Source: Blasia pusilla (Eukaryota). From it: 64,000 nucleotides of DNA. Position numbers and translations under genes: made by a program. The stretch spans positions 49,724,001 to 49,788,000 of the forward strand of contig CM114271.1 in the NCBI GenBank assembly GCA_050084515.1. The letters are read 5' to 3'. Each line of letters starts with the position of its first letter. Within the stretch, counting starts at the first letter, position 1. Shown here piece after piece: positions 5,188 through 32,375 of the stretch. Under the pieces are notes generated by a model. It was given only the letters and a program-made list of their open reading frames with translations, searched no databases and was not told the origin of the DNA.

Positions 5188-5341
5188 TTTTTTAAGTTAG
5201 AATTTGATGATTTTGAAAATGAAATATAAATGATGTATAATTTAACCCAATCCGTCTACACTATTTTTTTTGAAATGACTATCTTAAATTTTAATTGAAA
5301 CAAGAAATGAAAATGAAAACAAGTGAATTTAAATTTATACC

Positions 5342-5958
5342 TGTTGTGTATGCGCTGTCACCGAACACACATACAAACACGCACGAACCCATGCTTACTC
5401 ATGGCATCCAAACAACGAGACAAGAAGTACCAAAATATCTCCAATAAAATAAGATCCAATCTCTCCCTACTCCATCTCACACCATAGCTCTCAAAGGTGT
5501 GCACTCTCTCTCATGTCAAACCAAACCCACTCTCGTAATGAGAGGCTTGGGTTACACTCACAAGGCAAGCGACTATAGCTCCGCCGCCTTATGCCAAGAG
5601 GTTCAACAAAGAGAGAATGAGTTCTCAAGCTCTCTCTCCTTGAGGTATACCCCTCCCCTCTCCCAAGCTCTCTTCATGGTAACCTATGCTCCCAAGTCAC
5701 CTCCTTGGCACTTGACCTGATGTAGGAGGTCAAGGGCCACTTACCAAAAATAGAAAGTCGATCACATATTCAAAATGGTACTTACCTAAAATAGCAAGTT
5801 TCTCAATATGACTCTAAATGAGTCGAAACGAAGGGGAAACCTGCTCTCTCAGGTTTCCCGAGGCCTCAGCAGGTCATCCTCGACCTACTGAGCCTATCCT
5901 CCGCTACTCACGAAGGAGCTCTACTAGATCTCACCGATCTATCCTAAGAGACGTGACA
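5342..5958 (-). repeat. 3' LTR of copy A (subfamily 1)
   Basis: TG...CA termini. Colinear with the solo LTR at 57867-58522 and with the reverse complement of 36626-37156. Confidence 0.88.
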
Positions 5959-8900: not shown

Positions 8901-9751
8901 ATGCCAATCATGTTGACCACAGTCAACGGCGATCGATCATCGTGCCTCACTGCGTGTGATCTCCTCCTGTCAACTTAAGGCCCATATCTAGCTCCCAAAT
9001 CTCCATCGTGACTACGGTAGGACTCTCCGACGCGGGTCTAGGTGGTTCCTATGATGCAACCTTGTCTCGAACAACAAAACTCGACTGCTCCTCTACAGCC
9101 AATTACAAAATCGGATCTCCATGTTTAGTACCCATAACCACGCTTGATGTTGTGGCTACCATCTCCTGGCGTATCTGCAAAACATCTGAAAAAGTCCAAG
9201 GATGTCTCTCCTTATCACCCATGGTATGTCGATCTCCTCGGGTGTCGCCCCCAGCCACTCCCTCAACCGTCTTGGTAGGCATGGGGTTCACCAACGCAAT
9301 AGTTGTGATCTTTCGCATCCGAAAAAGACGTTTCTTAGCTACTCCTAAGCTGAAAATCCATGTCAAGCAGTTCAGGTCCATTGCTTGACCTAGGACATGA
9401 CGTCATGATGCCTTTGATAGTGATGGTACTACCATCACTCTTGTGGGGAATCCCATCGCTCGCTCTCGCTCATCAGCGTTGGGCTCCATCAACCTCTGTA
9501 CCTGGTCATCCCAAACCAAGCGAGGTCTGGCCTCCTTGAATGCATAGGAAGCAGGAAAACTCACCAATGTGGGAAAGACTGCCCGTGGCATGCCAATCCT
9601 GTTGACCACAGTCAACGGCGGTCGATCCTCGTGCCTCACTGCTTGTGACTGACGACCTTGATCCAGAATAGAATCCACTAACAAATCGGAGGGGCGCTCC
9701 ACTCTCGCATACGCCCTCCACAAAACCTCATGTGGCACCAATTTGGTCCAC

Positions 9752-9787
9752 CTAAGGTTTAGGGTTTAGGATTCAGGGTTTAGGGTT
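9752..9787 (+). repeat. Interstitial plant telomeric repeat tract (TTTAGGG-like, about 5 degenerate units)
   Basis: ctaaggTTTAGGGTTTAGGaTTcAGGGTTTAGGGtt, located at a deletion junction inside the copy A DNMT domain. Confidence 0.85.
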
Positions 9788-12044
9788 ACCCGCTCCAAGT
9801 CCTGCGTCCCCAACAATGAAATATCCCTCAGTAGGGAACTCTGGTATCCCTAGACAGCGGACGCAGACAATAAGTCGGGAAAACGGAGGGGTAATTGCGC
9901 CATATGGTGAAGAGAAACGTGCCTTGTAACATCATCAATCTCCACATATAGGTACTTCTGCATGCGTACTCCTACCTGCAAAACAACAGCTAACCGAGAG
10001 CTGATCCCTCCAAAGAGATCCAACATTTGAATACCCTCCTCTGGGATGTGCCACACAATGGGTGTGGTATCCAAGGGTGTCATCATAGCACTCTCGGCTA
10101 CCTTGGGTTCCTCTGACCCGTCATGCTCTGGTGCAGACGTCTTGCTCCACGCGGCATGCACATGCTTCATGGCTAAGCGTCGAAGCTCCTTAGTTGAGCC
10201 CAAAAGCGGCACCTCTCCTCCACGGACTGATGCGGCAACAATGACACTCCTCTCCATAGAAATGTCAGGAACGAGAGTATCCTCTGTATGGACATGTTCC
10301 TCAATCAAATCACTAGGCCAAGTGATGGTGTTGCTAAGGTCGCCATCTCTCCTGGCCGGCGCTCGATCACTGCACCTGTGAATCGAACGGATAATGAGCT
10401 AAGGCGCCCATCATCTGAATGCCATCCTTGTCTGTAGGACGATGAATCCTCCCAGTAATCCAGGGAAAACCCCATCGGTATAACACTGCTCCACCAACCA
10501 AGACGTCATAGGACTCTGCATCAATCACTATCGCTTTGGCTCGCACCACGGACTCATCTGTAGGATATCCCGGGCGAATCCTCATCACGACCTCCTAACG
10601 GTTAATATACTGTGTAGTACTTGCTCCACCTAAGGATATCTGTATCCGGAATGGACAACGCTCCACATCGGCCCTCGTCAGGCCCAAACCTTTGAATGCC
10701 GCTTTAATTTCCCCAACATCAGGGCTTGCGCTTCTGAATCCAACAAGACGCGCAACTGACTAAAAGCTCTACCTCCTGGACTCACCAACTGGAAGACCTC
10801 TCCCCGGTTATCCAGCAAAACAAACACCAGGAGAAACCATGGCACGCTCTATCGGGGGTCTAGCGGGCATCTCTGCCATCCTAGCAACCGCACCCTACCA
10901 TGAATCTGACATGGACAGCTCGAGCATCAACTCCAAGGGCAAGTCCATCACCTCCTCTGAATGTGATGCAGGAACTCCAACTCCATGCTCACATAGCGTA
11001 GTGGCCATCCGGAAAACCTCGGTGGGAGTACCTCTCAATGTCATAATATCGGAAGCAGAAAATAAAGGAGCGCGATACACAACAGTGGCCGCCCCCAACA
11101 ACGTGCTCGACACATGCTCTTCCTGAACATCAGCAATAGGAGTCGTCGCACTCGCTTCTTTGATCGCCCTCCGTGCCTCCACACCAACAACATCACCAAC
11201 TCTCTTGGAACTCTGATGAGGACCCATCGATGGGGTCCTCATCGCCTCGGACAACGTGAAAGACTGAGGAAGCGTGGTCTGTTTCCTGGCTTTACCTTGC
11301 TGTGGATCCAACTCTACGGCTTCTTCACGCGTAACAATTGCGGCGGCCTCCATCTGGGCAACCCCGCACATCCAACCAGGATCCTTCATATGTCTAGCCG
11401 CTCCATAAGAGGTCGATGCCACGGATCTGGAATCAGGTAATCTCAATGCCATAGCGGCAATTTCTGCTGTTGTAGCTGTTGTATCTAAGCAGCCATCCCA
11501 ACCTCACGCCCGGCGTCTCCCTCGACGCATCTAGGTGGTGGGACTCTATCTCCTTCACGAGAAACTTCACCATCCCCTCGGGCGAATCCAACTCCTTGTC
11601 CCCCAACGGGACCACTTGGTGCACGACCTCTAGGCCCACCCGAACCAACAAGATGTGGGGGATCTCACATGATGAGCTTGTGCTCATACTTAGGGTTAGT
11701 CTCACTTATGCACGTTTAAAGCAAGTGGGGATTTCACAAAGAGTTTTTATTTGTAGTTCTTGCGACCATAGGTGCAACTCTTGGGACTACTACTTGTGAG
11801 AACAGGAAAAAGCGTTTGAAGAGTGGTTATGTTCATAGCAAAGGTATAGTGCGAAGGCTACAAATTTGTTGGAGTTTGAGGTGACAATGGGTACTACTCT
11901 TTGTATCTTTGCCTCTTGTTAAAAAGCCAACCAAAAACGCGTTTGAAACGTGATTTTAGGGCTCATGATAGGCTCCAGATGACGATCATCAATGACGGCG
12001 TGGGTCATGTCGTCTTCGACAAACAAGATTAAGTCCAGCTCTAA

Positions 12045-12472
12045 TCTATATTATTAAGGGTTGAGAGCCTTTTTTGATTTGCAAACTCCTCTCTACTTGA
12101 CACGTGGCAATTGGGCAGCAAGAAAATATTTCACATGTTACGGACAACAAGAAGTAAATTTGAATTCATGTGTAACATCATTAATCTCTTCCCTTCATGG
12201 GCTATACGCTAGCTCTTCAAATACTTTTTTATTTCCCTTGCATCGCAAGTGCATCTTATCTATATTATTATGGGAGAATGCCTTCTTGAGTTGCAAAGAC
12301 CTCTTTGCTTGACCTGTGACAATTGGGCAATGATAAAATATTTCACATGCTACGGGAAACCAAAAAAAAAAAAATTTATGTGCAACATCATTAATCTCTT
12401 CCTTTCATGGATTATATACTAACTCTTCATACACTTTTTCATTTCTCGTGCATCGCACGGACACTTTACTAG
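12045..12472 (+). mobile_element. Non-autonomous Helitron, two tandem ~214-bp units
   Basis: A|TCTATATTATTA starts at 12045 and 12259. Subterminal hairpin CGTGC-ATC-GCACG at 12447-12459. Ends CTAG|T at 12469-12473. Confidence 0.8.
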
Positions 12473-12875
12473 TCGTATCTCATATACAATTGGTCTTGAC
12501 GTATCAACTGAAGAATTTGTGAATTCTCCATATGTGCAGACCCGCCATAACTGTATTTCCTAGTACTAGTAGTTATCCTCACATAATGTTCAATCTAGAA
12601 GAACAAAGAAGGAGCCTTTGAACACTTGTAGGAAGAGGAGAAGTTGTGTGCACTCGAGATTTGGATCGAAGATTTGGACTCGCTTCATAGTATGGAGCAC
12701 TCCTCACATGCGCACATAGCATCTCCCATACTTCAAGAACAGGAGCTTTTTCTATTCTATTTTCTTGAGTTAAAGTCATGCAATGTTGTAAAACCTTGGG
12801 AACCCAAGCAGAAACGAAGGGGTGACCAACAGTTCTCGATCTCCTGAAATACTCGACAATCGGCGAGACGGCTGC

Positions 12876-15800
12876 TTAAGGTGGGCTCCTGGTTATGTCT
12901 AGATTTGACTTGGATCTGATGAAACTTATACCAGGACGTTGATTTTGAACTAGCTCAACACTCCCGGAGGTGCTGCTTCTTTGGAAAACTCTCCTTTGAG
13001 GAAGCAGGGCCATGGATATGGAATCGTCTTCAAAAGAATGAGAATCGTCCAAAATGTGACACGAGTAGTTACCGTCCTCACTGGTGACGGGATCGGCAGA
13101 GCTATCGGCACTCGGAAGAAGCGACTGCAGTTCCTTGAATACTTCGTCCATACTCGGTCTGTCTTTGGACCGATCCCTCAAACATCTTGCCGCCAGTTTT
13201 GCTACGCTAGTAATTTCCTCCATTTCGCTCGCAAAATCGAGTCCTTGGGATAGAACGGGATCGACAAGTTTCCGTAACTGACCTGAACGTATGAGCGGAA
13301 GGGCATAGGCGCTGAGACCGTACTCCTCACGCGTGCCAGATCGGTCGATCACAGCTTGAGCAGAAATGAGCTCCAGAAGAATCACGCCAAAGCTGTAGAC
13401 GTCGCTCTTGGGTGTCGGCATGCCGCTTCCGAAATACTCCGGATCCATATACCCATAGGTTCCCGCCACGTGAAGTGTCTGCGTATTATCCCGAGGAGCT
13501 AGCTTGGAGATTCCGAAATCTGCAACCTTGGCTTTGAGGCTCTCGGTGAGAAGAATGTTGGCAGATTTCACATCCAAGTGGTAGATGACAGGGTCCGCGG
13601 AGTCGTGGAGGTATGCCAAAGCACCGGCTGTTTGCACGCCGATTGTAAGGCGCGATCTCCAAGTCAAGGGCGCTTCGCCGTGGGCTCTCCGCAGGTGATC
13701 GAGCAAGGTGCCATTGGGAACGTATTCGAAGACGAGAGCAGCGACCCTGTTTTCTAAGCAGCACCCGTACAGCTTCACGAGGTTCACGTGATTCACCCGG
13801 GACAGGATCTTGACTTCGTTGAGGAACTGGGTTTTATTCAGATCCGGACCGTCATGGTTGCTTTTCTTCACAGCCACCACGGAACCATCACTCAGAATGC
13901 CGCGGTACACAGTCCCGAAGCCACCGGCCCCGATCTTGCGGCTCTCGGTAAAATTATTGGTGGCCTTTCTGAGGTCCTTCAGAGGCATAGTCAAAGTCGC
14001 ACTCTCTCGCAAAACTGCTATAAGATCTGCGTCTTGGCGGTGTTTCCGTCTGTAGACTCTCGAGCGCCATACCAGCAACGCACAGCTGCCCACGGCGATA
14101 GCAATGGACACGCTTAGTACGACCACAAGTGCTCCGGGTCCTGATTTCTCGGAACACTCTTTGAGAGGGGGGCCACAGAGTCCTGGATTTCCAAAGAAAC
14201 TCGTCGCATTGCGAAGTCGGCAACCACCATATGGGAGCTGTCCCGAAAGGGAGTTCTCGGATAGATTGAGATATGCCAAACCTTCCATATCACACACGCT
14301 GTTGGGAACCCCGCCGGTCAATCTATTGTTCGACAAATCTATGTAGCGAAGGACCGGAAGGGTCCCATTGCTCCACTCCGTTGAAAGACTCCCCAACAAG
14401 GTGCTGCTGCTGAGGTCCAAGACTGTAAGAGACGTCAGTTCTCCCAAAATTTGGGGCAATCCTCCAGTGGAATTGATCCTGCTCAGATTCAGGTATTGCA
14501 AATCGAGAGAACTCAGGAACAGTATCTGCAGAAATCCCCTGAACAAGCTGACCATGGGATTGAGGCTGACATCCAACACCTGCAGATTCCTTCCACCCCC
14601 GGCTCTAATTTCCAAAGTTCCAATCAGGTTATTCCCTGCCAGTTGCAAGTCTTGAAGTCGCCAGCCTACATCGAGTTGGAATTGGTCTACGCGAATTGCC
14701 AGGTGGTTGTGCTGCATCCGCACCACCAGGAGATTTCGGAGGGAAAGTCTGGGGGGAAACGTCGTGAGCCGATTATGACTGAGGTCCAGATATGTCATCG
14801 ACAATTCTGAAGAATTCATAAGCGCCGCTTCGTCTTCTACACCCTCCAAGGAATTGAATGACACATTCAGGCTGTCCTGAACGCCGAGCAGCAACGCTAC
14901 AGTTAGGCTGCCGTTGAGCTGGTTTGCTGACAGGTCGAGACTGTCCCGTGTGCCCTGCCCGAATTCGCGAGGGATGACACCGGTCAAATTGTTGGAAGAC
15001 AGATCCAAATCGGAAATCCCACCAAACGCAGGTGGTATTGGTCCCTCCACTTGATTATGTGAGAGATTCATTTTTGTCACCCCCTGAAGACCATCCAGAC
15101 TAGCCAGTGTGCCATTCAGCTTATTGTCGGACAAGACGATTGTGCGGATCTGCGGCATGTTGGCGATCCCTGAGGGGATCGGTCCTTCAAGCTGGTTGTT
15201 TGACAAATCAAGTGTCTCGAGATTGACGAGGGCATCCAGACTCGGGATGATGCCGGTCAACTTATTGTGAGAAACATCGAAGAGGCTGAGATTCACCATT
15301 TTGGCGATCCCTGATGGCAGCGGTCCCTCCAAGTAATTGTTGGAAAGAATCAGAGTCACGAGGTGTATGACATTGTCGAGGACAGGGATCGTGCCAATCA
15401 AATCATTGTACGAGAGGTCCAAGATCTTGAGATTCCGCAAGTTCGCAATCCCTGATGGCATCGAGCCCTCTAACCGATTGCGAGAAAAATCGAGTTCCTC
15501 GAGATTTTCCAGACTATTCAGATTAGGTAGTGTGCCATTCAAATTGTTCTCCGACATGGTCAAACTCTTCAATGCCCGGAGTCCCCCGATGCTGCCGGGT
15601 ATGGTGCCCTCCAATTGATTATTCGAAATATCAAGCGTTATCAATCCCGTCAAGTTGCCAATCTCCGTTGATATCGAGCCCCCTAGTTTCTTCGTAGAAT
15701 CTTCTCCCAAATTGCTTAAACTGAGGTCCTCAACAGTAACGCTAGCGTTTCCTCTTCCACATCTCACCCCAGTCCATTGACAGACTGAGAACGTACTCGA

Positions 15801-16007
15801 CTCATCCCAATCCGCCAGCAAACCACCTGCATCTATAAAATCTCTTTTGATTGCAAGGAGTACTTGCTTTTGCGCTTCTTCTTGCGCAAGCACAGTGGGA
15901 CTGTGCACTACGGCGCAGTACGTAAAGAATAGAAACAACAACTTGGAGATTCGATGTTGTGACGGATGGAGAGGAGCGTCCGTAGAACACGGACACACAA
16001 GACCCAT
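12876..16007 (-). CDS. Leucine-rich repeat receptor-like kinase, 1043 aa, single exon, non-RD
   Basis: Signal peptide; LRRNT cap (LLADW...CQWTGVRC); about 20 plant LRRs (LxxLDLSxNxLxGxIP); GNPGLCG cap; TM (ALVVVLSVSIAIAVGSCALLVW); kinase motifs GAGGFG, VAVKK, HLDVKSAN, DFG, GTYGYMDPEY, SDVYSFG. Confidence 0.96.
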   Translation of the reverse strand: MGLVCPCSTDAPLHPSQHRISKLLFLFFTYCAVVHSPTVLAQEEAQKQVLLAIKRDFIDAGGLLADWDESSTFSVCQWTGVRCGRGNASVTVEDLSLSNLGEDSTKKLGGSISTEIGNLTGLITLDISNNQLEGTIPGSIGGLRALKSLTMSENNLNGTLPNLNSLENLEELDFSRNRLEGSMPSGIANLRNLKILDLSYNDLIGTIPVLDNVIHLVTLILSNNYLEGPLPSGIAKMVNLSLFDVSHNKLTGIIPSLDALVNLETLDLSNNQLEGPIPSGIANMPQIRTIVLSDNKLNGTLASLDGLQGVTKMNLSHNQVEGPIPPAFGGISDLDLSSNNLTGVIPREFGQGTRDSLDLSANQLNGSLTVALLLGVQDSLNVSFNSLEGVEDEAALMNSSELSMTYLDLSHNRLTTFPPRLSLRNLLVVRMQHNHLAIRVDQFQLDVGWRLQDLQLAGNNLIGTLEIRAGGGRNLQVLDVSLNPMVSLFRGFLQILFLSSLDLQYLNLSRINSTGGLPQILGELTSLTVLDLSSSTLLGSLSTEWSNGTLPVLRYIDLSNNRLTGGVPNSVCDMEGLAYLNLSENSLSGQLPYGGCRLRNATSFFGNPGLCGPPLKECSEKSGPGALVVVLSVSIAIAVGSCALLVWRSRVYRRKHRQDADLIAVLRESATLTMPLKDLRKATNNFTESRKIGAGGFGTVYRGILSDGSVVAVKKSNHDGPDLNKTQFLNEVKILSRVNHVNLVKLYGCCLENRVAALVFEYVPNGTLLDHLRRAHGEAPLTWRSRLTIGVQTAGALAYLHDSADPVIYHLDVKSANILLTESLKAKVADFGISKLAPRDNTQTLHVAGTYGYMDPEYFGSGMPTPKSDVYSFGVILLELISAQAVIDRSGTREEYGLSAYALPLIRSGQLRKLVDPVLSQGLDFASEMEEITSVAKLAARCLRDRSKDRPSMDEVFKELQSLLPSADSSADPVTSEDGNYSCHILDDSHSFEDDSISMALLPQRRVFQRSSTSGSVELVQNQRPGISFIRSKSNLDITRSPP

Positions 16008-19000
16008 TTGACGACTACTCCCAGCAAGCTCTGTCCCACATGTGCATATGCAACCTTGGCGCGTTACATAAGCGATCGCTTTTTCTGTTTTACGGATGTA
16101 ACAATCAACCTGTCAAGCAACGATAATTCGTCAAATTGATTCCCGAAATTTAACATTTCAGGGTATGCATAGGCTCCAGCTTAACCATCTCCAATTGCTT
16201 GAGAACCCATGAATCCAGCGCTGCCCAGCTTTCCTTCCGGTTCCCAAAGACTGAAGTGACCAATAACAAATGGGCGTCATGATCACAAGGTACTACCTGG
16301 CCAACAACAGCTGGTTACGGGAAGCTACATTTTCATGTTACTGCCAGGCTCCTGAAAGTTAAGTATAGTAGATTGCGCTCAGCGTCGCACTTTTGGTGAG
16401 TAGCAGCTGATATTCAAATCGTGTGTTGAATACATGATCATCATATACGTGTGCCACTCCACAGTAAGCTATCACTTCACATGCAGTATCCCTTCGAACT
16501 GGGTGTGATGCCCCTCCCACATCGAGCCCTAGACCTGACAGCCCAACCATCTACATTCTGGATCCAAGAAATAGTACCTTCTCCATGGGGAGTTGCCTCA
16601 CCAAGATGACCAAGTGACGTAGAAGAAAGTGATCTAAACAAGGTCCAGAAGCTAGTGAATCAATGATCCTTATCAAGCACATACCTTTCTGGTCTCATTC
16701 TTCTCGAGCACCGACAACTGATCTTCGAGCTCCAATATTTCCGCTCCAAATAAAAAACGACTTCCTCCATGGGACTGCCGACTTCACAGGAGCTCAACGG
16801 TATGTCTATTCCTCGGGAGCTTCGTCTGGATGCTGGTGATAAAGCAGGGAAAAGAGCTTACAACGTCTGAGTTTCGTATTCACGAATCTGAGCAAGACCT
16901 GTGGGGATTCCCCTTCGATTGGAATACAAAATCGTGAGGTCGTTCTAACGATTTTGTGCTCGCACTTAAATTCAGCAGCCAACACTTAAGATCTGGAAAC
17001 ATATCTTGCCTATGGATACGGCCCGCACGCTGCAGTCTACAGAACATCCCGTTCGTGGAAACGAAAACAAGGGTCACGCATAGCTCGGGGTTCAAATGAA
17101 GGGATCCATAAATAGAGCGTATAGCAAGTCAAATCATGAAGGTCAAACTGTGGAAAGAGCTTCAGGCAGAGCGTGTAGGGTACTAGAATGATGAAATCCC
17201 AACACTCTGCAAACGGCAGACATTCGGATTCGTCCACAAGTCAAGCAAATGCGAGGATTGAACTGGAAGTCGACTTCAGATTGCAAGCTCCATCTTGACC
17301 ACAGGATTCGACGCACTGGATGCAGGGTCGCTACTACAACTAGTAGGCTCCAGACTCTAGCCTTTCATTTCCGAGCTTCTGCGAACGCAAACTGGTCCAG
17401 GTCTACGCGTACGAAACTCGTCCGCAACGAACTACAAAAAAGGATTCCCGAAAAAAACTCTCACACCATCCATTTACCGCTCTTCTTCATATACCTGTCC
17501 ATTCCGAAGCGCGTGGCAGCTAAATGTAGACTCCAAGACTACCAGAGGTCTTTCATTCCGAAGGCGCTGCAATCACACATTCGTGGAAGGTGGTCTTTTC
17601 AACTTTTTTTGTGCACGTGTGTCATTCCGACCTTGTCACTTCCAATGAGCTGCATTTTAGAACAATTTCCGGAAAGATCCTCGTGCTCTAGCGACGCACC
17701 GTCAACAACCGCGAAAGACAGAAAACCCAAGAGAAAGTGCTTCGAGTTGCGCTGAATACCCACCATAGTCGCCTCGGGACCTCAAGCCATAGCATGGCCA
17801 CTAGCTTCGAATCCTGGCATCTCGTTGTGTACATACGGATCAACGGAACAAGTCCGTAGAACGACGCGAGTCATGATGCTCCAGAATCCCGCGCACTTCG
17901 CTCCGCCGTTCCAATGACCCACCAACACACCATCCCATCCATCGCCCGGGTACCCCGCATGTTTCCGTTTTTAGCTTGAGAACAAGAAAACCGAAATGCC
18001 TCCAAATTTCAAGTTCAGTTGACTTAGAACGAGTGCTTCGGTGGTCACTAACAAATTGTAGACTACTGATACGCAAGCCCGTTGTGGTACTTGCAAACTG
18101 CAAAGTATGCGCAAAACACTTACACAGCTGGAACATTGCACGTAGAATGAAAGCGGGATCCGAGACTAAACATTGTTGTGTCAAAGCGAGTCACTGATTC
18201 ACAACAGATTCTTCGACGACATTACCTAAGGGACGTTACCAGAACTGTGTCTCCAAACTCCTCTTAACCCTCGAGAGCGTTGCTTTGATCTTCATCCGGA
18301 GTTGAGATCAGGTCGCGGCCGTGGTGGAGTAGCTTCGAGAGGCCGAGGTGGTATGGGTGGTAGAGGTGGACCAGTGGTTGGAGAGCTTACAGTGGCCACC
18401 CCTACCACTACAACAGAGTCAGCTATGGCTGCCAAGATTGAGCAGTTGGACCAGAAGTTGGCTACTAGGGCTGGTATCCAGCATAGATCAAGTTCGGGAG
18501 CAGGGGCTTCCACCTCTTATGGAGGGGATGATCTCTCTTATATGGCGAAAAGACAAAAGTTGAGGTTGAAGATTCAAACGTTACGCCAAGAGGAGCCAAT
18601 TCTGAGAGGAGCCACTCGGCGTCGAGCCACGTGGTGCTCTCTGTGGAGTTGGGCCCCTGAGGGGTGAGGCCGGAGAGGAGCAGGCTTCCCAATTGGCCAG
18701 AGACTTTTTTGGGTCATTCTTGTTGTCTCGAGGTGCTTAGGACTCCATCCATGGTTCTTACGCAAGGAAGACCTATTGAGCCGGCAGTGGGGATTGGGGC
18801 ATCTACATCGCGTGTAGTAGACACGGATGCACTAAGACATCGATCTTGATTACGGATGGCAACCGGTGTTGGGATCCCCATTGTTTTTCGCCCGCCACGG
18901 AGCTAATGGCTTTAGGAGTTGCCTTAGCTCATGTATTTTGGACTAAGTCTTGTACCACGTTGTGTAAACATGGGGTATTATTCTTGCACGTCTTTGAGGT

Positions 19001-20024
19001 GGATGAGGATGTTGCGGTGGAGCGACCCTCTATGTTGTTGGTGTAGCATTGAGTACCAGTGCTACTTGGCGGTGGCGGCGGCGAAGATGGATGCACTACC
19101 GGCCCGGGCAGGTGGTGAGCCATTGATCGTGAGAGGCTTACACCTGGTGTAGGTATGTTGGACAACCGGAGTGGGATATTTCGATTGGTGAGTCCTACAG
19201 GACATGTGTATAGACCATATAGAGTCTTGTTAGACTCGGGTGCCCAACCTTTGATGTTGGGAAAGGCGGCATGTATTGGTTTGGGTATTCGGAGGTCAGA
19301 GCTTGAGCCTTGCCCATTCCAGATTCAAACATCACTTGGAGGCGCCAATGATAGGTCTCAATTCATGACACGAGAGAAGTTATGTACAGTTGAGACCAGA
19401 TCATGCGACTAATAGCTCTTGGTTGGGAGTACCTACAGTGGTCACATCAGGCGAGTCGTATGATGTACTAGTTGGAGGAGCAGTATTGTACCCAATGGGT
19501 TTTCATATGGACTACTGGACTGAGACATCGTCTTATAGACCTGGTTGGCAGTCCGGGGATGGACGTATGAACCAGGTTCCTGTGAGATTTATTTATGGGG
19601 CTCGACCAAGAGGGTCTTCCCCAACGGTGTTAGCATCTGTGGTTGGTTTTAGTGGAGTAGTCACTTGGCCAGGAGACTTTTTGGAGGGTAATCTTTTGCT
19701 ATGAACATCCAGCCAGGTTCACACAGTGAATCTAGGAGGTTGGAATCAAAAGTGTGGCGTGCAAAGCTGGATTCTCCTGTGAATGAGGAGGTAGAGGAGG
19801 TCCCTAGTTTTGCAGCAATGGCATCCTCATCGTTGGATGTGCCACTTTGGAGTTCAGGCGGTGCACTACGGCAAGAGGCTGATCGCCTAGTGCAGGAGGC
19901 TTGGTGTGAGGCTGGTATACCTTACAAGGAAGAGGAGGCCCCATGGCGGACTCCTACTTCTGGTCTAGTTGGGTTATCCCCTTTGGATACTACACCCATT
20001 GTATCGCAGTATCCGCTAGAGGGC

Positions 20025-20975
20025 ATTTGTGTGTTAGATCTCTTTGGTGGGATTAGCACTAGTTTGGCTGCAATGTTGTAGGCCGGTATTCCTCTGCGGA
20101 GATACCTGTATGTGGAGCGAGATGAGACGGCCCAGAGAGTCTCATCCCAACATATCGGTCACTTGATGTGGAGATATCCTGAGTTGTTGCCGCCATCAGC
20201 TATTCGTGGCTACCAGCGTGCTTTGCCGTCACACATTGCATTGTTGGGGGCGCAGGACCTTGAGAGGGTTGCTCCTGTGGATTTGGTGATTGCTGGATGG
20301 CCATGTCAGGGTCATACACGTGCTGGTCGTGGTGAGGGATTACACGACCCTAGGTCTCGATTGTTTTGGGAGATGTTACAGGTGTTACGACATCTTCAGG
20401 TTCATGAGGCACGTACTTCACCTTACATTTTGGAGAATGTTCCATTGTTGGGTGACACTCGGACCCGGATGATGGCGAGTGTTGATGAGGTGGGGTCTTG
20501 GATTGGACCAACGGTGTTGTTGGATGCAGCGCGAGTCGGCTCGCGTGCACATCGTCCACGCTTGTGGTGGACAAACTTGTTGCGTAGGGAGGTTCTACGT
20601 CGAGCATATGATGCAGTGCAGCGGGATCCTTGCCTTACACTGGATAGTATCTTGGATACTGGGCGACTTTCTCAGGTGGTGAGGGTTATTGATCGGTCAC
20701 CCATGGTAGTGGTGAATCGTGTGGGCCAGCCTAGGATGGCACTACCCACATTTGTGAGTTTTCCCTCGTCACATGCCTACAGGGAAGGTGGTCTCGGGCT
20801 TGTATGGGATTCTCATGTGCCAGAGTTGGTGAAGCCTAACGCTGATGAGAGAGAGCGTGCGATGGGATTTGCCACTGGTATGATAGTGGTTGCTTCCATT
20901 TATGAGGCTTCACGACGTCATGTGTTGGGTCAGGCCATGGACCTGAATTTTTTGACTTGGATTTTGAGTCTTGGT
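20025..20975 (+). pseudogene. DNMT3-like C5 cytosine DNA methyltransferase domain within pol of copy B, in frame with RT; one premature TAG at 20079-20081
   Basis: Motif I ICVLDLFGGISTSL; II YLYVERDE; IV DLVIAGWPCQG; V GLHDPRSRLFWEML; VI YILENV; VIII SRAHRPRLWWTNL; IX NADERERAMGF; X RRHVLGQAMD. Canonical (non-permuted) order. ORF 20112-21806 runs directly into RT. Confidence 0.93.
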
Positions 20976-21399
20976 ATGGCCGAGCAGCGTCGACTTCGGA
21001 CTATGTCTGTGGGTCTTCCACCCCTTGTGATGAGCTCGATGGCTACCAGGACGGTAGAGGCATCGGTTAGGGGCAAGGAGAGTAGTATTTTGCATCCTTG
21101 GAGTAAATGGGATGTAATGGATGGGCATGTGGAGTTGGTTGCTCATGCTGGTGGAGGAGTTATTTGCTCATATGATGGTGTAGCTAAGGGTGTACCATCT
21201 TGTGAGGGGTTCGTGAGCAGACCAATGGCGTCGTCCTCTCCCTCTAGTGTGCCAGTGGAGGAGACTTGGGAGCCATTACTTGGGCCCAAGCTTACGGGAG
21301 GTGAGAAACGATGCTTGACACAGTTCCTACGTGCTTATAGGAGTTGTTTTGCCTTTATCATGAAGGAGTTGGATGCTTTGGTTGGACCCGGTATACGGA

Positions 21400-23950
21400 T
21401 TGATTTGGCTAGTGATATGCCAATCTTTCGTCGTCCCTACCGATATAGTGATATGGAGAGGGACCTGATTCAAAGTAGGACGTTGGAACTTTTGGAGGCT
21501 GGATTAGTGGAGTTATCGCATGGAGAGTATGCATCAGCCACTGTCATTCCTGCTAGAAAGGATGTGCATGGCAACTACACGGATAGGCGGATGTGTGGAG
21601 ATTATCGTCCTATCAATTGGCACACCAAGGTTGATAGGTATGTCAGGCCTACACCTAAGGAGATCTTTGATGTGGTGGGACAGGAAAAGATTTTCAGTAC
21701 TTTGGATCTTCGGGCAGGATACCATCAGTTGCCGATTCGAGAGAATGACAAGGCCAAGACAACATTTTGGGGTGTCAACTCTCATGGCAAGGATTGTTTG
21801 TACTAGTGGAAATTCTTACCCTTTGGGTTGAAGAATGCACCTGCCGAGTTTCAGAGAGTGATGGACAGGATCCTAGCAGGGTTGGATTTTGTTCGGTGTT
21901 ACATTGATTATATCTTGGTGTTGAGTAACACGGTGGAGGAGAATCAGATACATTTACATATTTTGTTTGAGCGGTTGAAAGCTCATGGTCTACTTTTGCA
22001 TCGAGGAAAGTGTAAGTTCTTCCATGAGGATGTTGAGTACTTGGGTCATGTGATCTATCCAGGTGGTTTGGGAGTTCAACAAGCAAAGATGGAGGCAATT
22101 GCACTTATTCCTCATCCGGTAGATGTGAGTAGAGTTCGGGCATTCATGGGATTGGCGAACTACTATCGGAGGTATGTGAAGGGATTTTGTGCTATGGCAA
22201 AGCCTTTGAACCAATTGTTGAAATCTCTTATCTTACAGGAGTATGACTTCCAGGTGGTACATAGACCTGGAGTTGCCAACCTTGATGCTGATGGGTTGAG
22301 TAAGAACCCATGTACTAGCCAAGAGGATGCAATTGGGGCTAGATGGCATGGCGAGGTTGATGAGGAGATGGTGCCAGGTTGGCATGCATTCGCCTTTTTA
22401 TGTTGGTTAGGGATGGACTCTAGTATGGAGGACCACACGACATCTTACTCTAGTCAGAGGGTAGATGGCCAGCCTTCAGATCCTAAGGTTGGAGATGGTG
22501 GTACGGATCAACATGATATTCATGATGATGCGTTGGTGTTGGAGTTCCTACGGACCAGTAGGGTGCCAGGCATAGTGAGTGCCAAGGAGCGAGACTATGT
22601 TCTTCAACGTGCTAAGAGGTATCGATTGGAGGGAACACATATTCTCCGTGTGTGGGAGGATCGTAGAGTACGAGTAGTGCCGCATTTGGCTCAAAGAGAG
22701 CGCATTGTGCGACATGCCCATGAGGAGTTGGGACATTTTGGGGTAAAGCGTACGTATAGCTTACTCGTTGGTCAATATTGGTGGCATGGCATGCATACTC
22801 AGGTGCAGCAGTTGGTGTCACGTTGTATGGTTTGTGACTGGGTGAGGGCATCATTCAATACCCCTATACCACAGTTACATCTCTTGCCTATTATGGGGTT
22901 GGGTTACCGTTGGAGTGTGGACTTTGCGGGACCGTTACCGTTGATTGTACGACATCATCGATATGTGTTGGTGATGGTGGAGCACTTCTCCAAGTGGATT
23001 AAGTTGGTGGCATTACCTGACAAGGCAAGTAAGGGAACCGCGTATGCGTTTCTTGATAGAGTGCTTAGTCATTTTGGTGCACCAGCTGAAGTGCTGACCG
23101 ACCAGGGTACAGAGTTGCAGGGTGAGTTTCAAGTCTTGTGTGACAAGGCGTTGATTGAACACGTCTCGAGATCATCCAGAGGCAGATGGTTTGGCTGAGC
23201 CTGTGGTTCAGACGGTGAAGAGGGCATTACGCAAGTATGGCCTACAGAAGGGGCATCTTGGAGACTGGGATATTCAGTTGCCATGGTTAGCCATGGGGTA
23301 TAGGTTTAGTCGCCAAGCATCTTTGGCTTCCTTCTCAGCTTATTTTCTGTTATACGGCCGAGATCCAGACTTGCCAGCAGCAATTCGTTCGGGAATCTAG
23401 TGAGGTGGTGAACCTTGATAACCCAGAGATGTGGATGAGAGTGTGTTCTCAGCGGGCAGAGCTCTTTCGGAGAGTTATGCCAATAGCCTTTGAGAACCTC
23501 GCCATTCCTCAACACAGGGATACGTTGCGGTATGCAACCATTCGGGGTGGAAGTTATCGACCATCAATTCGTAGGTTCCATATGGGGGACTATGTCTATT
23601 TGCAGCACATCGCATCGACAACGTTGGATGTGACGGCAGGCCGCACTATTTTACGAGTGCACGAGGTGTTAGCTTCTGGATTTCTCATGTTGGAGGGTTG
23701 TGATGGAGTTGTTTGGAAGGACCATGTGCGTAATTGTGCGCCATATCATCTTCCAAATGTGGATGGTACTGTTGACCCAAGCTTAGCCATGATATGTGCT
23801 AGCTTAAGGTGCATGTTGTGTGGGTATGCCAGTAACGCAGCCCGTATGTTGGTGTGTGATCGGTGTTCTATGGGTTGGCACATGATGTGTTTGACTCCAC
23901 GTATGGATTTTATTCCTACTGGAAGGTGGGTTTGTCCTCGATGTACTTAG
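21400..23950 (+). pseudogene. RT - partial RNase H - integrase - PHD finger of copy B
   Basis: RRMCGDYRPIN, FSTLDLRAGYHQ, PFGLKNAPAEFQRVMD, YIDY (mutated YxDD), LQEYDFQVVHRPG..N..ADGLS, HAHEELGH...CMVC, WSVDFAGP, VLTDQGTE, HPEADGLAE, then a C4HC3 PHD CMLC...CDRC...HMMC...CPRC before the stop at 23950. Confidence 0.93.
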
Positions 23951-24224
23951 GAGAGGTAGATGACTTGATCTTTGCATGATATGGATTACACATAGGCGAC
24001 TAACAATGGGGCAACCTAGCACCTGGCATTCTGATTCGTGCACCCAAGAAGGTGTATAGCATGTAGTAGATGTATAGGGCTACAGGAGTTAGGGACCTAA
24101 CCTTGATTAGGGGCGAGTTATAGTACACTTGTGTTTGTGGATGCTCTCGTCTATGTTATGTATGTATGTGAGTATGGTATGTCAAGGATGTATGTTGTAT
24201 GACGATGTGGATTCGCATGACAGC

Positions 24225-24685
24225 TGTCATGACCATACGGATTATGTTGTAGAGTATAGTGTGCTAGTAGAGGCCATACCTTATGTAGGGCCGTAGTGTC
24301 TAGGTAGAGATGCAGGGTTGGGGGTTACTCAGTTGAGGATGACTTTTCCAGTAGGGCCCGCTCTTAGGTTGGAGGATATAGTGTGGAATGCACTCAAAGA
24401 ATAGTTAGTTCTTTGAGTTGAGCCTGTTGCGTTGGAAGTTAGCCTTGGTAGTGAGTAGAGCTCTTGGCTATGGTGGTTCCCGCAAGCTTCGACCTGGATT
24501 CTCCCATTGTCGAGTGGGTTTGGCTTGATTATATGTGATTCTATATGTGTTTTATGACAGTAGGTCTTCACGGATTTCAGTTATGGTACGCTTGTGTTTG
24601 TGGATGCTCTCATCTATGTTATGTATGTATGTGAGTATGGTATGTTAGCGATGTATGTTGTATGACGATGTGGATTCGCACAACA
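24225..24685 (+). repeat. 3' LTR of copy B (subfamily 2, 461 bp)
   Basis: Begins TGTCATG and ends CACAACA. Its last 107 bp (24579-24685) are duplicated at 24116-24222. Confidence 0.8.
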
Positions 24686-27600
24686 CATTTTGTTGAATGA
24701 GTAAAGGTCCGATGTTACTTGAGCTTTCAAATGAGACCTGATGTTACTTGAGCAGAGGTTGAAGTGCACACAGTGAGTTTGGAGGTTTCACATTGGTTTG
24801 TAACACATAAATACTTATACTCTGTAAGGTCCTGTAAGCCATGACGCCTCTTCGAATAGCAAGAGGCCATGAAATCGAAAGATCTTCCTCATGGAGCGGA
24901 TCTAAGTATCTTTAGAGACAAAAAAAATCGAATGATTAAAAAAAAACCGTTTTCATGGCGGAAGTACCAAAACCCTAAGGGCCCCCGTCCAACGGCTAAA
25001 AAAATCCCCTCCAACGATTTAGAATTGTGGAATTCACATATCAGACCATCTGAAAAGGTTGCATTTTACTTGGGCAAAAATGCCATGTGTCAAATGCTCG
25101 GGTGTATGCGTTACGAAAAGGCACTCTCCCATAATATTATAGATGAGCAACCTTATCATATTATCCACTTCTATCATAGTATCCACTTTAGTGTAAATAC
25201 AAGTATGCGGCCTAGTCTGAATAGTTGGGGTGAAAATGATAGTATGAGTAGTTGAGTTGAAAATGTTTATCATATTGTGGTGCAAAACTTTGAAGTGGAG
25301 ATTATTATGGCAACCATTATTATGAGTGGAGTGATACAAAATGTTACTATAGTAAAAAAATGTAACTAGTGGCATGCTTTGTTTGTCGAGGGGTAGTGTA
25401 AAGCGGAGGTGAATATATTTTAATATTGTTTAGCAAGTAGGTAAAGGATCACAGTTCATACATGTTGTAAACTCTCTGTTCACGACAAGTGACAGAGAGT
25501 ATTTGAGGAGTTAACTTTTTATTGAATATTGGATAATTGTGTGTGGATATTGGCTTCATTTATAATGAAAATGGTGAGGTTAATGTATTTCTCAAGAAAT
25601 GAGATGCATATTAAGACAAAGTATATGAAAAAGGCTTGTGAGTATACAAGAGGCAACAAGGACAAGCCAGAACACGATTTGTTGATAGAAAATGTAAGCA
25701 ATAAGCTTGAAAGTAGGAAAGAATAAGTTGTCACATACAGAACTTGAATGCATAGATGAAGAAAAATAGAAAGTCCAAAAAACATGCATGCATCATGGAA
25801 TCTAATCATGGGAGTCATAGTAGAGGATGCCAAATAGAAATGGAGTGAATCTGGTCGATAGAATTAATGAACCAGAAGGAGAAGATGCATGAAACAACTT
25901 GCAAAAGCTGATTATACTTATCAGACAATAAAGTCATGCGTAAGTGTCAGAGTTGATAGTGGATTAACCTTAGTAAGCAAGTGATGATGCAATTAAAGCT
26001 CACATGTTCAATGCTTGCAGAAAAAGAAACACCAAACACAATGACAAACAACGCTTGTGTTTGTTGTAAGCCTAGAGAGTAAGCTAAGAACTAGCCGCTA
26101 TACTCTCTCAACATCGACTAGATAATGGCAAGCTTAAGAGCAAGTGTTGGATTATCATGAATGAGAGGACAAACATTCTTGGCAAGACCAACAACCTAGT
26201 CCTTTGCATCACGCAATTGATTTTTCAAAGTATGAATCTCATTAATGCAAAGCAGGTTGCTACGAAGAGACAAATTGAGAAAATCATTCAATTATGCAAT
26301 TTTGTTAGACATAGCAAGAAGCCTATCTTGCGTAGCTCGGACTGAATCTATGTCGTGGCCTTGAGCAGATGGGAGGTGTTGCTCGTCAGCACTGTTGTCT
26401 TCGTTGTAGTGAATATGAATGTTGAAATCGTGATTGTTATTGTTGTTGTGATGAGATGCATGTGAGGAATTGTTTGCTTGATGGAATGGTCCAGGACGAA
26501 TAGGACAGCCCATTCGTAGTCCCGATCTCTGCACAGAGCAAACATGAGGTAGAGTTAAATTTACAAGTCGCCAAGACGGCAAAGTGTAATAGGAAAATAG
26601 TATTCAAAAATATGATTTGAAATTAAGAGTAATTAAGTGGTAAATGCATGAAACAAGAATACTTGAATGGATCATGAGGACATTTCTTACTAGATATATG
26701 TAAATCATGATTGCATCTAGCTGAATAGACAAAAACATAAACAACATGAATGGAAAATGGAAATCAAATATCAACAATGAAAATTAGAAGGGAAAACTAT
26801 AAAAGAAAAAACACAAGAAGACAAACCATTCGAATATAAATATGGCTTGATGAAAGTTATGCTCTAAAATAGAATATGAAATGTACTTAGAGTTGACACA
26901 CAACTTAAGCAAAGCCTCGATGAATTGAGAAGTGATGCAAAATTTATGCCAAGTCTCAATGTAAAATTGTTGTGGAAAATGAAGGTTGTGTGTTATGTGG
27001 AATGTTCAAAACTCTAGCACTGAAAAGACAAAACTTTGGAAGATAGAAAACTATCAATGCCAAGAAAGTACAACACTGAAAAATCTAGAGCTAAACATCA
27101 TAATAGCTATCTTAAAAACTTGTTGATGATCCTTGACTGCATTTTGAAATTGAACCTCAACCATACATGAAGGTGACACCAGAATCAATGACAACTTTAT
27201 CTCGGCTTGATAGTATCGGAGCCCTGGGACAACCAATGGGAAGATTTACAGGCGCGGCGTGTGGTCCTACCCGCAGTCGACCCTACACGAATTAGCGTGT
27301 TTTGTTTACTTTTCCGCTCTTTGTTCAATTCTCTGTGGCTTGATAATGATGAATAGAACTGAATTCAAGTCTTACCTAAAATGAAACTTAGTTTGCAACC
27401 ACGCATATTTGTGCTTGTTTGGAGAAGTGACAAGGAGGTTTGGATCATAAGAGGCATTCACTTGTGAAGGGAGTGGCGTATTGGTGGCATGGAGTGGATT
27501 GCTTTGTGGCAAAATAGATATAGAAGTTTGTGATGGTTCAACATGAGGAGTAGATAAAACAACGATGACATCATCAAAGTCTATAAATAACTAGAGTTGC

Positions 27601-30454: not shown

Positions 30455-32375
30455 CTAGGCCTAGGCATTATTTAGCTTGTGAGGTCATTTGATTTGATGC
30501 ACCAGAGTCAATCTACCAATCTATTGTCAAGTCTTTCTTGACCATTGCTCCCATATAATGAGTCATGACCAAGAGATGCTCCGTTTATGAATGTTGTTGT
30601 TCTTGGTATTGCTCTCGGTGTTGTTGCTCGACATAGTTTTGTTGTTGTAAGGGTCTTGTTCTCATATCTGCCTTCTTCTTGAAGCAAAACTTTGCATAGT
30701 GACCCTTTATCCCACAGTAATTGCAAGATCCAGGGACCCTCTACTGCTGACCTCGATCCCAACGGTCTCCACCATCATCACCTTGTGATTATGTTTCGTA
30801 CTGGTTCGTAGTTGATTGAGTGACGTTATATTCAGTGCCTCTTCCTCCATATGCTTGATATCCACCACGACCACAGAGGTTTCTTCCACGGGCCCTACCT
30901 CTGTTTGATCCATAACCTACAAATAGCGCACTTTCTTGCAGACTAGACAAGCTACCGCTGCCTACTAGGCGTATCTCTTCACTAATCAACAGAGGAACTA
31001 ACTCTTGAAAAGTTGGATATTTCTCTCTCACAAAGATAGAGGTCTCAAAGGACTTGTAATCATTTGGAAGGCCTTGAAGAGTGAATAAAATCAGATCATC
31101 ATATTCTACTGTCACTCCAATGCTATTCAACTGATCAACAATATGTTTGATACTCAAAATATAATCATTGATGCTCTGCGATCCTTTTCTCACTTCACTC
31201 AATTGTTGTTTCAATTGAAGCTTTCTGACCTTTTTAGATGTCTAGAACAGCTTTTCCAATGCATCCCAGGCCTCCTTCGGACTATCAATATCTTGGATGT
31301 GACTTATCATTGGCGAAATGATCATTATTGAAATGTAGTGGATTACTTGCCTTGCGCGTTTGTTCCAAGCGCGAATATTCAAGTCTGTTGAGTCACCTTC
31401 TAGCTTGGCCTCATCACCTGCGACAAGCTCTCATAGTTCTTGACCCATGAGAAATTATTTCATACGAAACTTCCACACATTATAATTATGCTTATCTAGC
31501 TTTTTGCTTGTGATTGTTGTTGAGGAATACTCCATGATAAACGATTTCACTCACAAAAACGTAATTTCAGACTTTCTACTGCTCCAATTGAAGGATAGAC
31601 CAATCCTACACAGAAATCGACTTGAAATTTGCCAAAATTGATCAACTGTATGAAAGAACTAGTCAAAATTGGCTTGTAGAGAGCAAATTGCACAACTTTT
31701 CTTCACTAATTGCACTTTCCTACACTGAAAATTGCTACTGCATGAGCTCAGAGTGTCAGAATCGAGAAATTTTGGGTGCGTTGGAAAGCTCTCAACTAGT
31801 TCTACAAGACGGCTAGAATTAGCCTTTGGAATTTTTATAGCCAAAGCATACCCAGACGGCTGAATCGACCAGGAAAGCCAAAAAAATGCCTCCAAAGTTT
31901 TATCACCGTTAAAGCTCCACCTGAAATCTGCACCCACTGAGCTATGAATAAAATTTCCTTCTCCCAAATTGAAATTGTGCCTTCTCTTGCCTCTCTTCTC
32001 TCTTCAAACACCAAGAATTTCAAGTGATGTTCTCCTCTCGCTCTGATACCATGTGGAAAACTACTAAACAAGCATAATTGGTGGAAAATGGCTCTCACAC
32101 ACACACACCACCATGGAGGAAAAAATTTGCAATGAGAGAATGAGTGGAGGCTGGTCCTCTTCTCAATTATATAGGATATGTACAGACAATCATAACCCTA
32201 CCCTTAACGATAGTCTCGAGTTAGACTAATTGTGATTAACTAACCCTAGTTAAGATAATCGTGCTTAACTAACTAACCAAGATTAAGCTTCCCTACTTCA
32301 TGTGAGTACCAAATGTAGCAGCTCAGGTGTCTCATGAGCTTGACTGTAACTCAATCTTCAATACGTCCTACAACA
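30455..32375 (-). mobile_element. Ty1/Copia retrotransposon 5' part: LTR 32375-32052, PBS, gag, start of protease; truncated
   Basis: LTR TGTTG...CCACA followed by the tRNA-Met PBS TGGTATCAGAGC (32051-32040). Gag KLDKHNYNVWKFRMK...SINDYILSIKHIVDQLNSIG...LQGLPNDYKSF; zinc knuckle CNYCGIKGHYAKFC (~30730-30690); protease W*IDSGASNQMT (~30520-30480). Confidence 0.9.

Follow-up and report, generated by a model that had tools for sequence, protein, structure and literature searches.

A DNMT3-like methyltransferase domain in a dead, probably gypsy-type retroelement of a land-plant genome

The element at 18272-24685 and its decay

The subject of this report is a retroelement, designated copy B, in a 64,000-nucleotide stretch of Blasia pusilla DNA (GenBank assembly GCA_050084515.1, contig CM114271.1, positions 49,724,001 to 49,788,000 of the forward strand). 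This whole stretch is called the window, and positions are counted from its first letter. Self-comparison of the window revealed three related elements (copies A, B and C) and a 650-bp fragment, D. Copy B lies on the plus strand at 18272-24685, as delimited by tblastn, Pfam and its 3' terminus. It contains a gag remnant, an aspartic protease (PR), a C5 cytosine DNA methyltransferase (DNMT), a reverse transcriptase (RT), an integrase (IN), a PHD finger and 3' repeats. A first-pass annotation of the window had ended the element at 24685, which was confirmed as its exact 3' terminus.

The DNMT domain, of DNMT3 type with motifs I to X unpermuted, occupies 20019-20990 (+), as assigned from PF00145, searches of the PDB, and AlphaFold2 and Foldseek. 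A single frame (19692-23198, +) carries the DNMT motifs and then the RT and integrase. In the translation of this frame, motif I (LDLFGG) was found at 20034-20051, motif IV (GWPCQG) at 20295-20312, motif VI (ILENV) at 20427-20441, motif VIII (RAHRPRLWWTN) at 20544-20576, motif IX (ERERAMGF) at 20847-20870 and motif X (RHVLGQAMD) at 20916-20942, all on the plus strand. These six motifs, spanning 20034-20942, align motif-by-motif with DNMT3A. The first-pass annotation had described a complete motif set in frame with the RT. Both the motifs and the common frame were recovered, but the domain is broken after motif I and ahead of motif IV by a TAG stop (20079-20081, +). A second in-frame TAG, at 21804-21806 (+), falls within the RT, where copy C has Q at the same position.

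The remaining domains were located on the same strand. An aspartic protease active-site motif (LLDSGA) is present at 19227-19244 (+), in a region that matches the PR region of relatives by tblastn. Pfam gave no protease call in copy B at E <= 0.01, and protease models do match the related proteins P0018 and P0034. The RT extends over 21261-22224 (+; RVT_1, 60.6 bits), and its catalytic YIDD is changed to YIDY (21900-21920). No Pfam RNase H domain was found in copy B. Residues 1262-1390 of P0034 have no counterpart there, and tblastn placed the RNase H deletion point at 22224/22225. The DDE integrase, with an H2C2 zinc finger and an rve core, lies at 22674-23400 (+; Integrase_H2C2, 55.4 bits; rve, 45.0 bits) and passes into another frame after 23155. 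The C-terminal PHD finger follows in the next open reading frame (ORF) at 23810-23947 (+; PF00628, 38.1 bits), and two frame changes were counted in the IN-PHD stretch ahead of it.

By tblastn, nothing before residue 344 of the Marchantia protein P0001 is matched in copy B, which has therefore lost the 5' repeat and the beginning of gag. Copy B is a dead fossil copy, with two stops, a YIDY site, a deleted RNase H, two frameshifts and no 5' end. The proposed order PR-DNMT-RT-RH-IN-PHD (RH, RNase H) was found intact in P0034 and P0347. In copy B itself it held only in part, since RNase H is missing, the IN-PHD stretch changes frame twice and the protease is recognized only by its motif and by tblastn matches to relatives.

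A DNMT3-like catalytic domain

The Pfam model PF00145 (DNA_methylase) matched copy B with 36.5 bits against a cut-off of 22 (E 4.9e-9). When the copy B domain alone was compared with the PDB by phmmer, DNMT3A ranked first (5.3e-11), followed by DNMT3B (2.4e-10), DNMT3C (3.8e-8), DRM (0.003) and M.HhaI (0.005). A 12-sequence profile gave the same leading group, with DNMT3A at 8.7e-16, DNMT3B and DNMT3C at about 1e-14, M.HhaI at 5e-10, DNMT2 at 4e-7 and DRM at 5e-6. No DNMT1-named chain appeared among the 57 PDB matches of this profile at <= 0.01.

The predicted structure gave a similar result. The AlphaFold2 model of the domain had a mean predicted local distance difference test score (pLDDT) of 89 and a predicted template modelling score (pTM) of 0.90. 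In a Foldseek search of the PDB, the matches listed were all DNMT3A, DNMT3B or DNMT3C (E 5e-19 to 6e-16), with TM scores of 0.81-0.83 on catalytic-domain chains and about 20% identity in the structural alignment. Matches in the ESM Atlas belonged to generic DNA_methylase clusters. By Pfam, no PWWP or ADD reader domain stands beside the DNMT in copy B or in intact relatives, and the PHD finger lies far off at the integrase C-terminus.

Therefore, by sequence and predicted fold, the domain is a bona fide DNMT3-like C5 methyltransferase. The resemblance to DNMT3 with unpermuted motifs, as originally proposed from the motif wording, was borne out by both the PDB rankings and the Foldseek matches.

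Further copies and the wider family

Copy A (about 5353-11416, minus strand) and copy C (32374-37156, plus strand) were delimited by self-comparison and tblastn and belong to a second subfamily. DNA identity was 82-92% between A and C and 64-73% between B and either of them. All three window copies (3/3) are truncated at the 5' end. In copy C, the DNMT domain at 32729-33739 keeps every motif and occupies the same position as in copy B, but it contains 6 in-frame stops. In copy A, a deletion of about 290 nt has removed motifs IV-VI from the domain. The earlier statement that two further copies hold the same domain is thus right as to its place and as to the motifs of copy C, and it overstates the state of copy A. 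Copy A also carries a tandem duplication with a period of 689 bp (8474-8959 and 9163-9648), which repeats the end of the DNMT domain. A deletion common to A and C removed the end of RNase H and the integrase zinc finger, according to tblastn.

Relatives were collected by two kinds of protein search. A word-indexed search with the DNMT part returned 42 matches, including 16 Marchantia polymorpha gene models (60-73% identity), one protein of Calypogeia fissa (73%) and one of Sphagnum fallax (50%); the remainder were metagenome proteins. The Marchantia homologues are listed in databases as hypothetical proteins. When cluster representatives were searched exhaustively, 2684 proteins scored E <= 0.001; of these, 639 reached <= 1e-10 and 184 reached <= 1e-30, and many were 1000-3456 amino acids (aa) long. 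The matches listed included no seed plant; since only 8000 candidates were scored in the word-indexed searches, this is weak evidence that seed plants lack the family. No Klebsormidium nitens protein appeared by name among the matches listed in the protein searches.

Intact polyproteins of 1946-2358 aa were present in the family, and the DNMT is retained in them. In P0034, a single open frame of 1946 aa, the protease spans residues 252-349, the DNMT 517-733, the RT 1058-1203, RNase H 1268-1397, the integrase 1518-1686 and the PHD finger 1898-1940. The precomputed Pfam list gave the same order, PR-DNMT-RT-RH-IN-PHD, for P0347. In that list, P0332 and P0339 have both a chromodomain (PF00385) and a PHD finger beside the DNMT.

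Conservation of the domain was assessed in an alignment of 29 rows, namely copy B and those 28 of the 42 matches that aligned in one stretch. The motif IV cysteine was present in 28/29 rows and the E-N of motif VI in 29/29. Among 12 sequences at 29-42% identity, 28 columns were invariant, including C109, Q110, E152, N153, R192, R194, W197 and N199. The DNMT motifs are kept in the family down to about 33% identity.

Selection was estimated between copies B and C by the Nei-Gojobori method (NG86). The ratio of nonsynonymous to synonymous divergence (dN/dS) was 0.19 for the DNMT (330 codons) and 0.17 for the RT (305 codons), against 0.73-2.1 in off-frame controls; these values are rough because dS is saturated (1.3-1.7). 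The DNMT thus evolved much like the RT and not neutrally. Between A and C, the ratio in the RT was 0.48, as expected if much of their divergence postdates the death of both copies.

Two domain architectures were distinguished among 250 related proteins, which remained of 370 after 120 matches to the neighbouring kinase were set aside. The DNMT stands ahead of the RT in 23 and after RT and RNase H in 82; another 35 are fragments with the DNMT right before the integrase, and in 2 the DNMT and integrase lie farther apart. Trees were built from 69 rows, namely copy B and 68 proteins that matched both domains over a long stretch; 9 near-identical members of clusters had been removed beforehand. They are unrooted, came from a quick search and carry support from the Shimodaira-Hasegawa-like approximate likelihood ratio test (SH-aLRT), without bootstraps. 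On both the DNMT tree (SH-aLRT 99) and the RT tree (95), a single change separates the two architectures. Where the organism is named, proteins of the PR-DNMT-RT form come from streptophytes (Marchantia, Sphagnum and Closterium NIES-53, -54 and -65) and those of the RH-DNMT-IN form from chlorophytes (Scenedesmus sp. PABB004, Chromochloris zofingiensis and Hariotina reticulata). Elements of this kind are common in liverworts, mosses and green algae.

The RH-DNMT-IN form is the larger sister group and includes P0030-P0033, P0035, P0244, P0270 and P0328. It also includes the metagenome locus L076, which holds an intact 2014-aa frame (4314-10355) in the order RT-RH-(DNMT)-IN-PHD.

Because the DNMT stands at the same position in copies B, C and A and in 23/250 proteins, has a dN/dS close to that of the RT and is retained in intact polyproteins, it is an integral and ancient part of the family that co-diverged with the RT under purifying selection. 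The first-pass annotation had likewise seen it as part of a diversified family and not as a one-off capture.

Split direct repeats at the element ends

Copy B had been called a long terminal repeat (LTR) retrotransposon, but self-comparison found no LTR pair in any window copy; the elements end in split direct repeats instead. For copy B, the idea of canonical LTRs was rejected, since a sensitive BLAST comparison of 23900-25200 with 16200-19200 was empty and only a 107-nt pair, B1 and B2, was found.

The 3' end of copy B is composed of four parts, all on the plus strand. A polypurine-like G-rich tract (about 24105-24121) stands directly before repeat B1 (24122-24222), which ends ...CATGACA. 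Repeat A2 (24225-24579) begins with TGTCATGACC, two bases past the end of B1, and is homologous to the A repeats of the metagenome loci L040 and L080. Repeat B2 (24580-24685) ends ...CACAACA and forms the 3' terminus, with unrelated DNA beyond. The 3' end of copy A has the same polypurine tract-B1-A2-B2 series with B2 shortened. Copies A and B therefore retain the B1-A2-B2 half, their 5' ends being gone.

Whole elements were sought in metagenome contigs scanned with a DNMT profile. Among 80 loci, six held a whole element (L040, L054, L055, L062, L077 and L080), and all six showed the layout A1-internal-B1-A2-B2; the other loci were too short or too decayed to tell. In 6/6 whole elements, a G-run precedes B1, as also in copy A, and exactly 2 nt separate B1 (...ACA) from A2 (TGT...). 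Repeat A starts TGTCATG (TATCATG in some A2 repeats) and repeat B ends ACGACA or similar in all six. The element termini are thus of the TG...CA type (TGTCATG...CACGACA).

Target duplications of 4 bp were exact at 5/7 insertions, one base off at 1/7 and absent at 1/7. The exact ones were GGTC (L054), CCAA (L055, past an extra 15-nt repeat), AAGG (L040), AATC (L080) and TGTG (fragment D). L077 has the imperfect pair ATTA/ACTA, and L062 has none. Fragment D (57871-58516, minus strand), a solo A-B unit of the A/C subfamily with TGTG on both sides, is what a split-repeat element would be expected to leave behind if its A1 and A2 recombined.

None of the six whole loci has the TGG start of a transfer RNA (tRNA)-type primer site after A1, as judged by this start and not by comparison with a tRNA set. 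Instead, the sequence right after A1 is the reverse complement of positions 162-170 of A, over a match of 8-17 nt. L040, L054 and L062 match over at least 14 nt, L077 over 11 nt, L080 over 10 nt and L055 over 8 nt. By a rough estimate, a 14-nt match of this kind would occur by chance about 5e-5 times per locus. The complementary sequences after A1 differ between two subfamilies. This complementarity suggests that reverse transcription may be self-primed.

Base composition also differed between subfamilies. In the copy B subfamily (18272-24685; L040:1676-10805; L080:1328-12353), the sense strand has more G than C (skew 0.22-0.26) and more T than A. The L054-type subfamily lacks such a G excess (skew -0.05).

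RNA and DNA reads from the host

Three stranded RNA runs and one DNA run carrying the host species label were mapped on 12000-25000. Over copy B, sense RNA depth was 5-70 and antisense depth at most 4.3 in the three runs. The neighbouring kinase gene, described below, had a depth of 2-12 on its own strand. Its reads show fixed differences from the window, and therefore the RNA came from another strain.

The RNA on copy B derives from sibling copies and not from the copy B locus, because the reads are 95-99% like the window with dense fixed differences; in run X21 this was the case for 1374/1526 reads (about 90%). At 22225, 62-103 reads per run continue, from either side of this point, into RNase H sequence absent from copy B, which encodes the start of RNase H as in copy C. 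Thus, the transcribed siblings retain RNase H. RNA coverage fell below 1 past about 24585, near the A2/B2 boundary, which is only suggestive since B reads could equally fall on B1.

In the DNA run, summed word depth was about 6e3 to 1e5 on the element and about 6 on the kinase gene; this depth is not a copy number, and it points to a family that is very abundant in the host. Sibling copies are therefore abundant and sense-transcribed in the host, a statement that does not extend to the state of their DNMT frame.

Three joints were seen in RNA reads. One returns 272 bases within A2 (24254-24525; 1-5 reads per run), one skips 1001 bases without GT..AG (22476-23478; 9-22 reads), and one skips 71 bases (19696-19768). 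Rearrangements in sibling copies are a more probable source of these joints than splicing.

Neighbouring sequences in the window

Between copies A and B lies a leucine-rich repeat (LRR) receptor-like kinase gene (12876-16112, minus strand), an intronless ORF of 1078 aa with LRRNT_2, LRR and Pkinase domains by Pfam. Its best identities were to Riccia (41%), Marchantia paleacea (41%) and Calypogeia (39%), with liverworts at 38-42% overall and flowering plants at about 30%. Because this neighbouring gene is closest to liverwort proteins, the host is read as a liverwort-like land plant, in agreement with the initial impression of a land-plant genome.

At 41390-42514 (+), two adjoining ORFs match the PIF1-like helicase model PF05970 at model positions 2-89 and 87-216. 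They are probably what is left of a Helitron, with one ORF divided in two by a stop or a frameshift. Two more short tandem duplications were found in the window, at 2563-2950 and 12040-12457. Pfam assigned no family to the gag and PR ORFs of copy B, or to the ORFs at 58.9-59.7, 37.7-39.2 and 17.2-17.8 kb.

Discussion

Copy B is very probably a dead, 5'-truncated gypsy-type element that carries a DNMT3-type domain between the protease and the RT and whose integrase has a C-terminal PHD finger. By this reading it is an element of the KnitGypsy-Dnmt3 kind, known from Klebsormidium nitens, in a host that is a liverwort-like land plant. KnitGypsy-Dnmt3 combines a DIRS repeat structure with Gypsy domains (de Mendoza 2018, PMC5890265). 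The shared features are an unpermuted DNMT3-type domain in a Gypsy Pol ORF, DIRS-like repeats, the lack of introns and a streptophyte host (PMC5890265). Purifying selection is also common to both, with Ka/Ks < 0.2 reported there (PMC5890265) and 0.19 found here.

The two cases differ in the host, which judging by the kinase gene is a land plant here. In addition, the term "PHD" has 0 occurrences in the main text of PMC5890265, and the covered part of that paper makes no mention of target duplications, TG...CA termini or a self-priming signal. The words "Marchantia", "Physcomitrella", "liverwort" and "moss" are likewise not in its main text. Later sources refer to these elements only as "streptophytes (Gypsy-DNMT3)" in the parts covered (PMC12344493; bioRxiv 10.64898/2026.05.21.726589). 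The portions of the literature covered, which include the Marchantia N4-methylcytosine (4mC) preprint, contained no account of a bryophyte transposon with its own DNMT; further species or details of the termini may be given in the supplements of de Mendoza 2018. The kind was already described in 2018, and what is new here is a further family member and a host range extended into land plants.

Other systems share single features. SymbioDIRS-Dnmt3 of Symbiodinium also has a DNMT3-type domain in Pol and A-coding-B-A-B repeats, and its enzyme methylates CG de novo in yeast (PMC5890265). However, it uses a tyrosine recombinase and belongs to another order of retrotransposons, whereas the present family has a DDE integrase and 4-bp duplications. 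EpiLTRs and DAM-carrying retrotransposons of Euglena and Collodictyon likewise join a DNA methyltransferase to chromatin-reader modules, but their enzymes are a DNMT4-related 5-methylcytosine enzyme and an adenine methyltransferase, separately acquired (bioRxiv 10.64898/2026.05.21.726589). PHD fingers are a common accessory domain of Chlamydomonas transposons (PMC8557442).

Cellular DNMT3 proteins (mammalian DNMT3A, DNMT3B and DNMT3C) gave the best sequence and fold matches to the catalytic domain and have the same motif order. The element domain differs in having no PWWP or ADD domain and in being embedded in a polyprotein; this comparison was made with solved DNMT3A/B/C and not with plant DNMT3 (MpDNMT3b). 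Chromoviruses also carry a histone-reader module at the integrase C-terminus, which presumably chooses the chromatin of insertion, and in copy B a PHD finger identified by Pfam takes the place of the chromodomain. Canonical Ty3/gypsy elements share the TG...CA ends and the short duplication, but not the two-LTR flanks or the tRNA-type TGG primer site. Tf1 of Schizosaccharomyces pombe is a self-priming Ty3/gypsy element whose primer site is complementary to its own leader and not to a tRNA end; it has ordinary LTRs and neither DNMT nor PHD finger. The likeness to Tf1 lies in a sequence at the primer position that is complementary to the element's own leader, as judged here from complementarity only.

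With regard to function, the most likely role, after de Mendoza 2018 (PMC5890265), is that the DNMT carried in Pol would methylate new complementary DNA (cDNA) or a freshly integrated copy. The PHD finger would tether the integrase to chromatin that is silent, and on arrival the element would thus already carry, or sit in, a repressive mark of the host. The nearest solved relatives of the PHD finger are CHD4, KMT2C/D, ATXR5, DPF2/3, KDM5A/B, PHF21A and UHRF1. Most of these presumably read histone H3 tails unmethylated at K4.

Several points weigh against the reading of copy B and its family given above. Copy B cannot function, given its two stops, YIDY site, missing RNase H, frameshifts and missing 5' end, and the RNA reads come from its siblings. 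Kinship to KnitGypsy-Dnmt3 is argued from shared features, not from an alignment. "DNMT3-type" denotes a ranking against solved structures, and the trees comprise element DNMTs without host DNMT3, DRM or DNMT1. The dN/dS values are blurred by saturation. Motif IV reads E-C instead of P-C in 7/29 rows (P0031-P0035, P0037 and P0038), where the cysteine and the other motifs are kept. The observed/expected (o/e) CpG ratio of the copies is 0.60-0.76, not below that of the flanks outside transposable elements (0.42-0.52), and CpG depletion thus gives no sign of special self-methylation. The K. nitens DNMT domain gave no methylation in yeast, a result its authors call inconclusive, and human DNMT3B was likewise inactive in the same yeast test (PMC5890265). 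Lastly, the specificity of the PHD finger and the circle-opening model set out below are what we infer, not what was observed.

Some of these points would fit a methyltransferase fold kept for another job, such as RNA methylation, DNA or chromatin binding or a spacer role in Pol, which would make the domain a pseudo-enzyme or a repurposed fold. They are the yeast inactivity of the K. nitens domain on DNA (PMC5890265), the E-C variant of motif IV and the background level of CpG depletion. However, over 29-70% identity, the B lineage and most relatives retain all catalytic motifs, namely motif I for S-adenosylmethionine (AdoMet), the cysteine of motif IV, ENV, RxR and motifs IX and X, and such conservation would be unusual for a mere scaffold. 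The yeast negative is also uninformative, since the active human DNMT3B was negative too. We consider this other-job explanation unlikely.

A second alternative is a tyrosine-recombinase retrotransposon of the DIRS/PAT-like type instead of a gypsy-type one. The A1...B1-A2-B2 layout is the one described for DIRS-order elements (PMC5890265), and it was seen in 6/80 loci here. However, copy B and its intact relatives have a DDE integrase (Integrase_H2C2 and rve) and, by Pfam, no phage-integrase or tyrosine recombinase domain, and TG...CA ends with 4-bp duplications are a mark of DDE integration, which leaves this alternative very improbable. The least probable account is that the DNMT is a fragment of a host DNMT3 gene into which a retrotransposon inserted, or which it captured once, and that it fits the frame by local chance: its nearest solved relatives are cellular DNMT3 proteins and all three window copies are broken, but the order PR-DNMT-RT recurs in B, C, A and 23 proteins and RT-RH-DNMT-IN in 82 more, the domain co-diverges with the RT, its dN/dS between subfamilies is low, intact single-ORF polyproteins contain it, and it lies inside elements bounded by target duplications.

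Returning to the gypsy-type reading, the terminal anatomy can be joined in a replication model. Minus-strand synthesis would start at the site after A1 and plus-strand synthesis at the purine tract. The transcript's own 5' end would act as primer, from the middle of repeat A, as in Tf1. In the sense of reverse transcription, the LTR would then be B followed by A. The resulting cDNA would have B-A repeats, and its ends would be joined (A-end|B-start) into a circle. The DDE integrase would open one of the circle's two ...CA-NN-TG... sites and so produce A-internal-B-A-B with a 4-bp duplication. The A2|B2 joint fits this model, being exactly what end-joining of a B-A...B-A cDNA would give. Because the copies run from A to B with TG...CA ends and duplications, the DDE integrase would have to act on ends inside the B-A LTR.

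A broader proposal builds on this model. It holds that a gypsy-type class spans the green lineage, with a circularly permuted LTR, self-priming and a circle opened by the integrase. Its DNMT3 and PHD kit would predate the split of chlorophytes and streptophytes, with one move of the DNMT between the PR|RT and RH|IN positions, and the class would still be abundant and transcribed in bryophytes. Taken as a whole, we regard this as possible but doubtful. Follow-up would be most worthwhile for the anatomy of the terminal repeats and for the two architectures, and the former is relevant to the question of how a DIRS-like layout can arise where no tyrosine recombinase is encoded.

That a retrotransposon should encode the very enzyme with which its host silences it is a long-standing puzzle. 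In K. nitens, enzyme activity was not demonstrable in the original report, and the host is hard to manipulate. The family is now found in land plants, with 16 Marchantia polymorpha gene models and members in Calypogeia and Sphagnum, and its siblings are abundant and transcribed in the host of the window. Its DNMT has been kept under selection together with the RT across chlorophytes and streptophytes. These results move the question of transposon DNMT3 to organisms with mutants of every host methyltransferase and good methylome methods. If the permuted-LTR class with its DNMT3 and PHD kit is real, DNA methylation encoded by transposable elements would become testable in Marchantia genetics.

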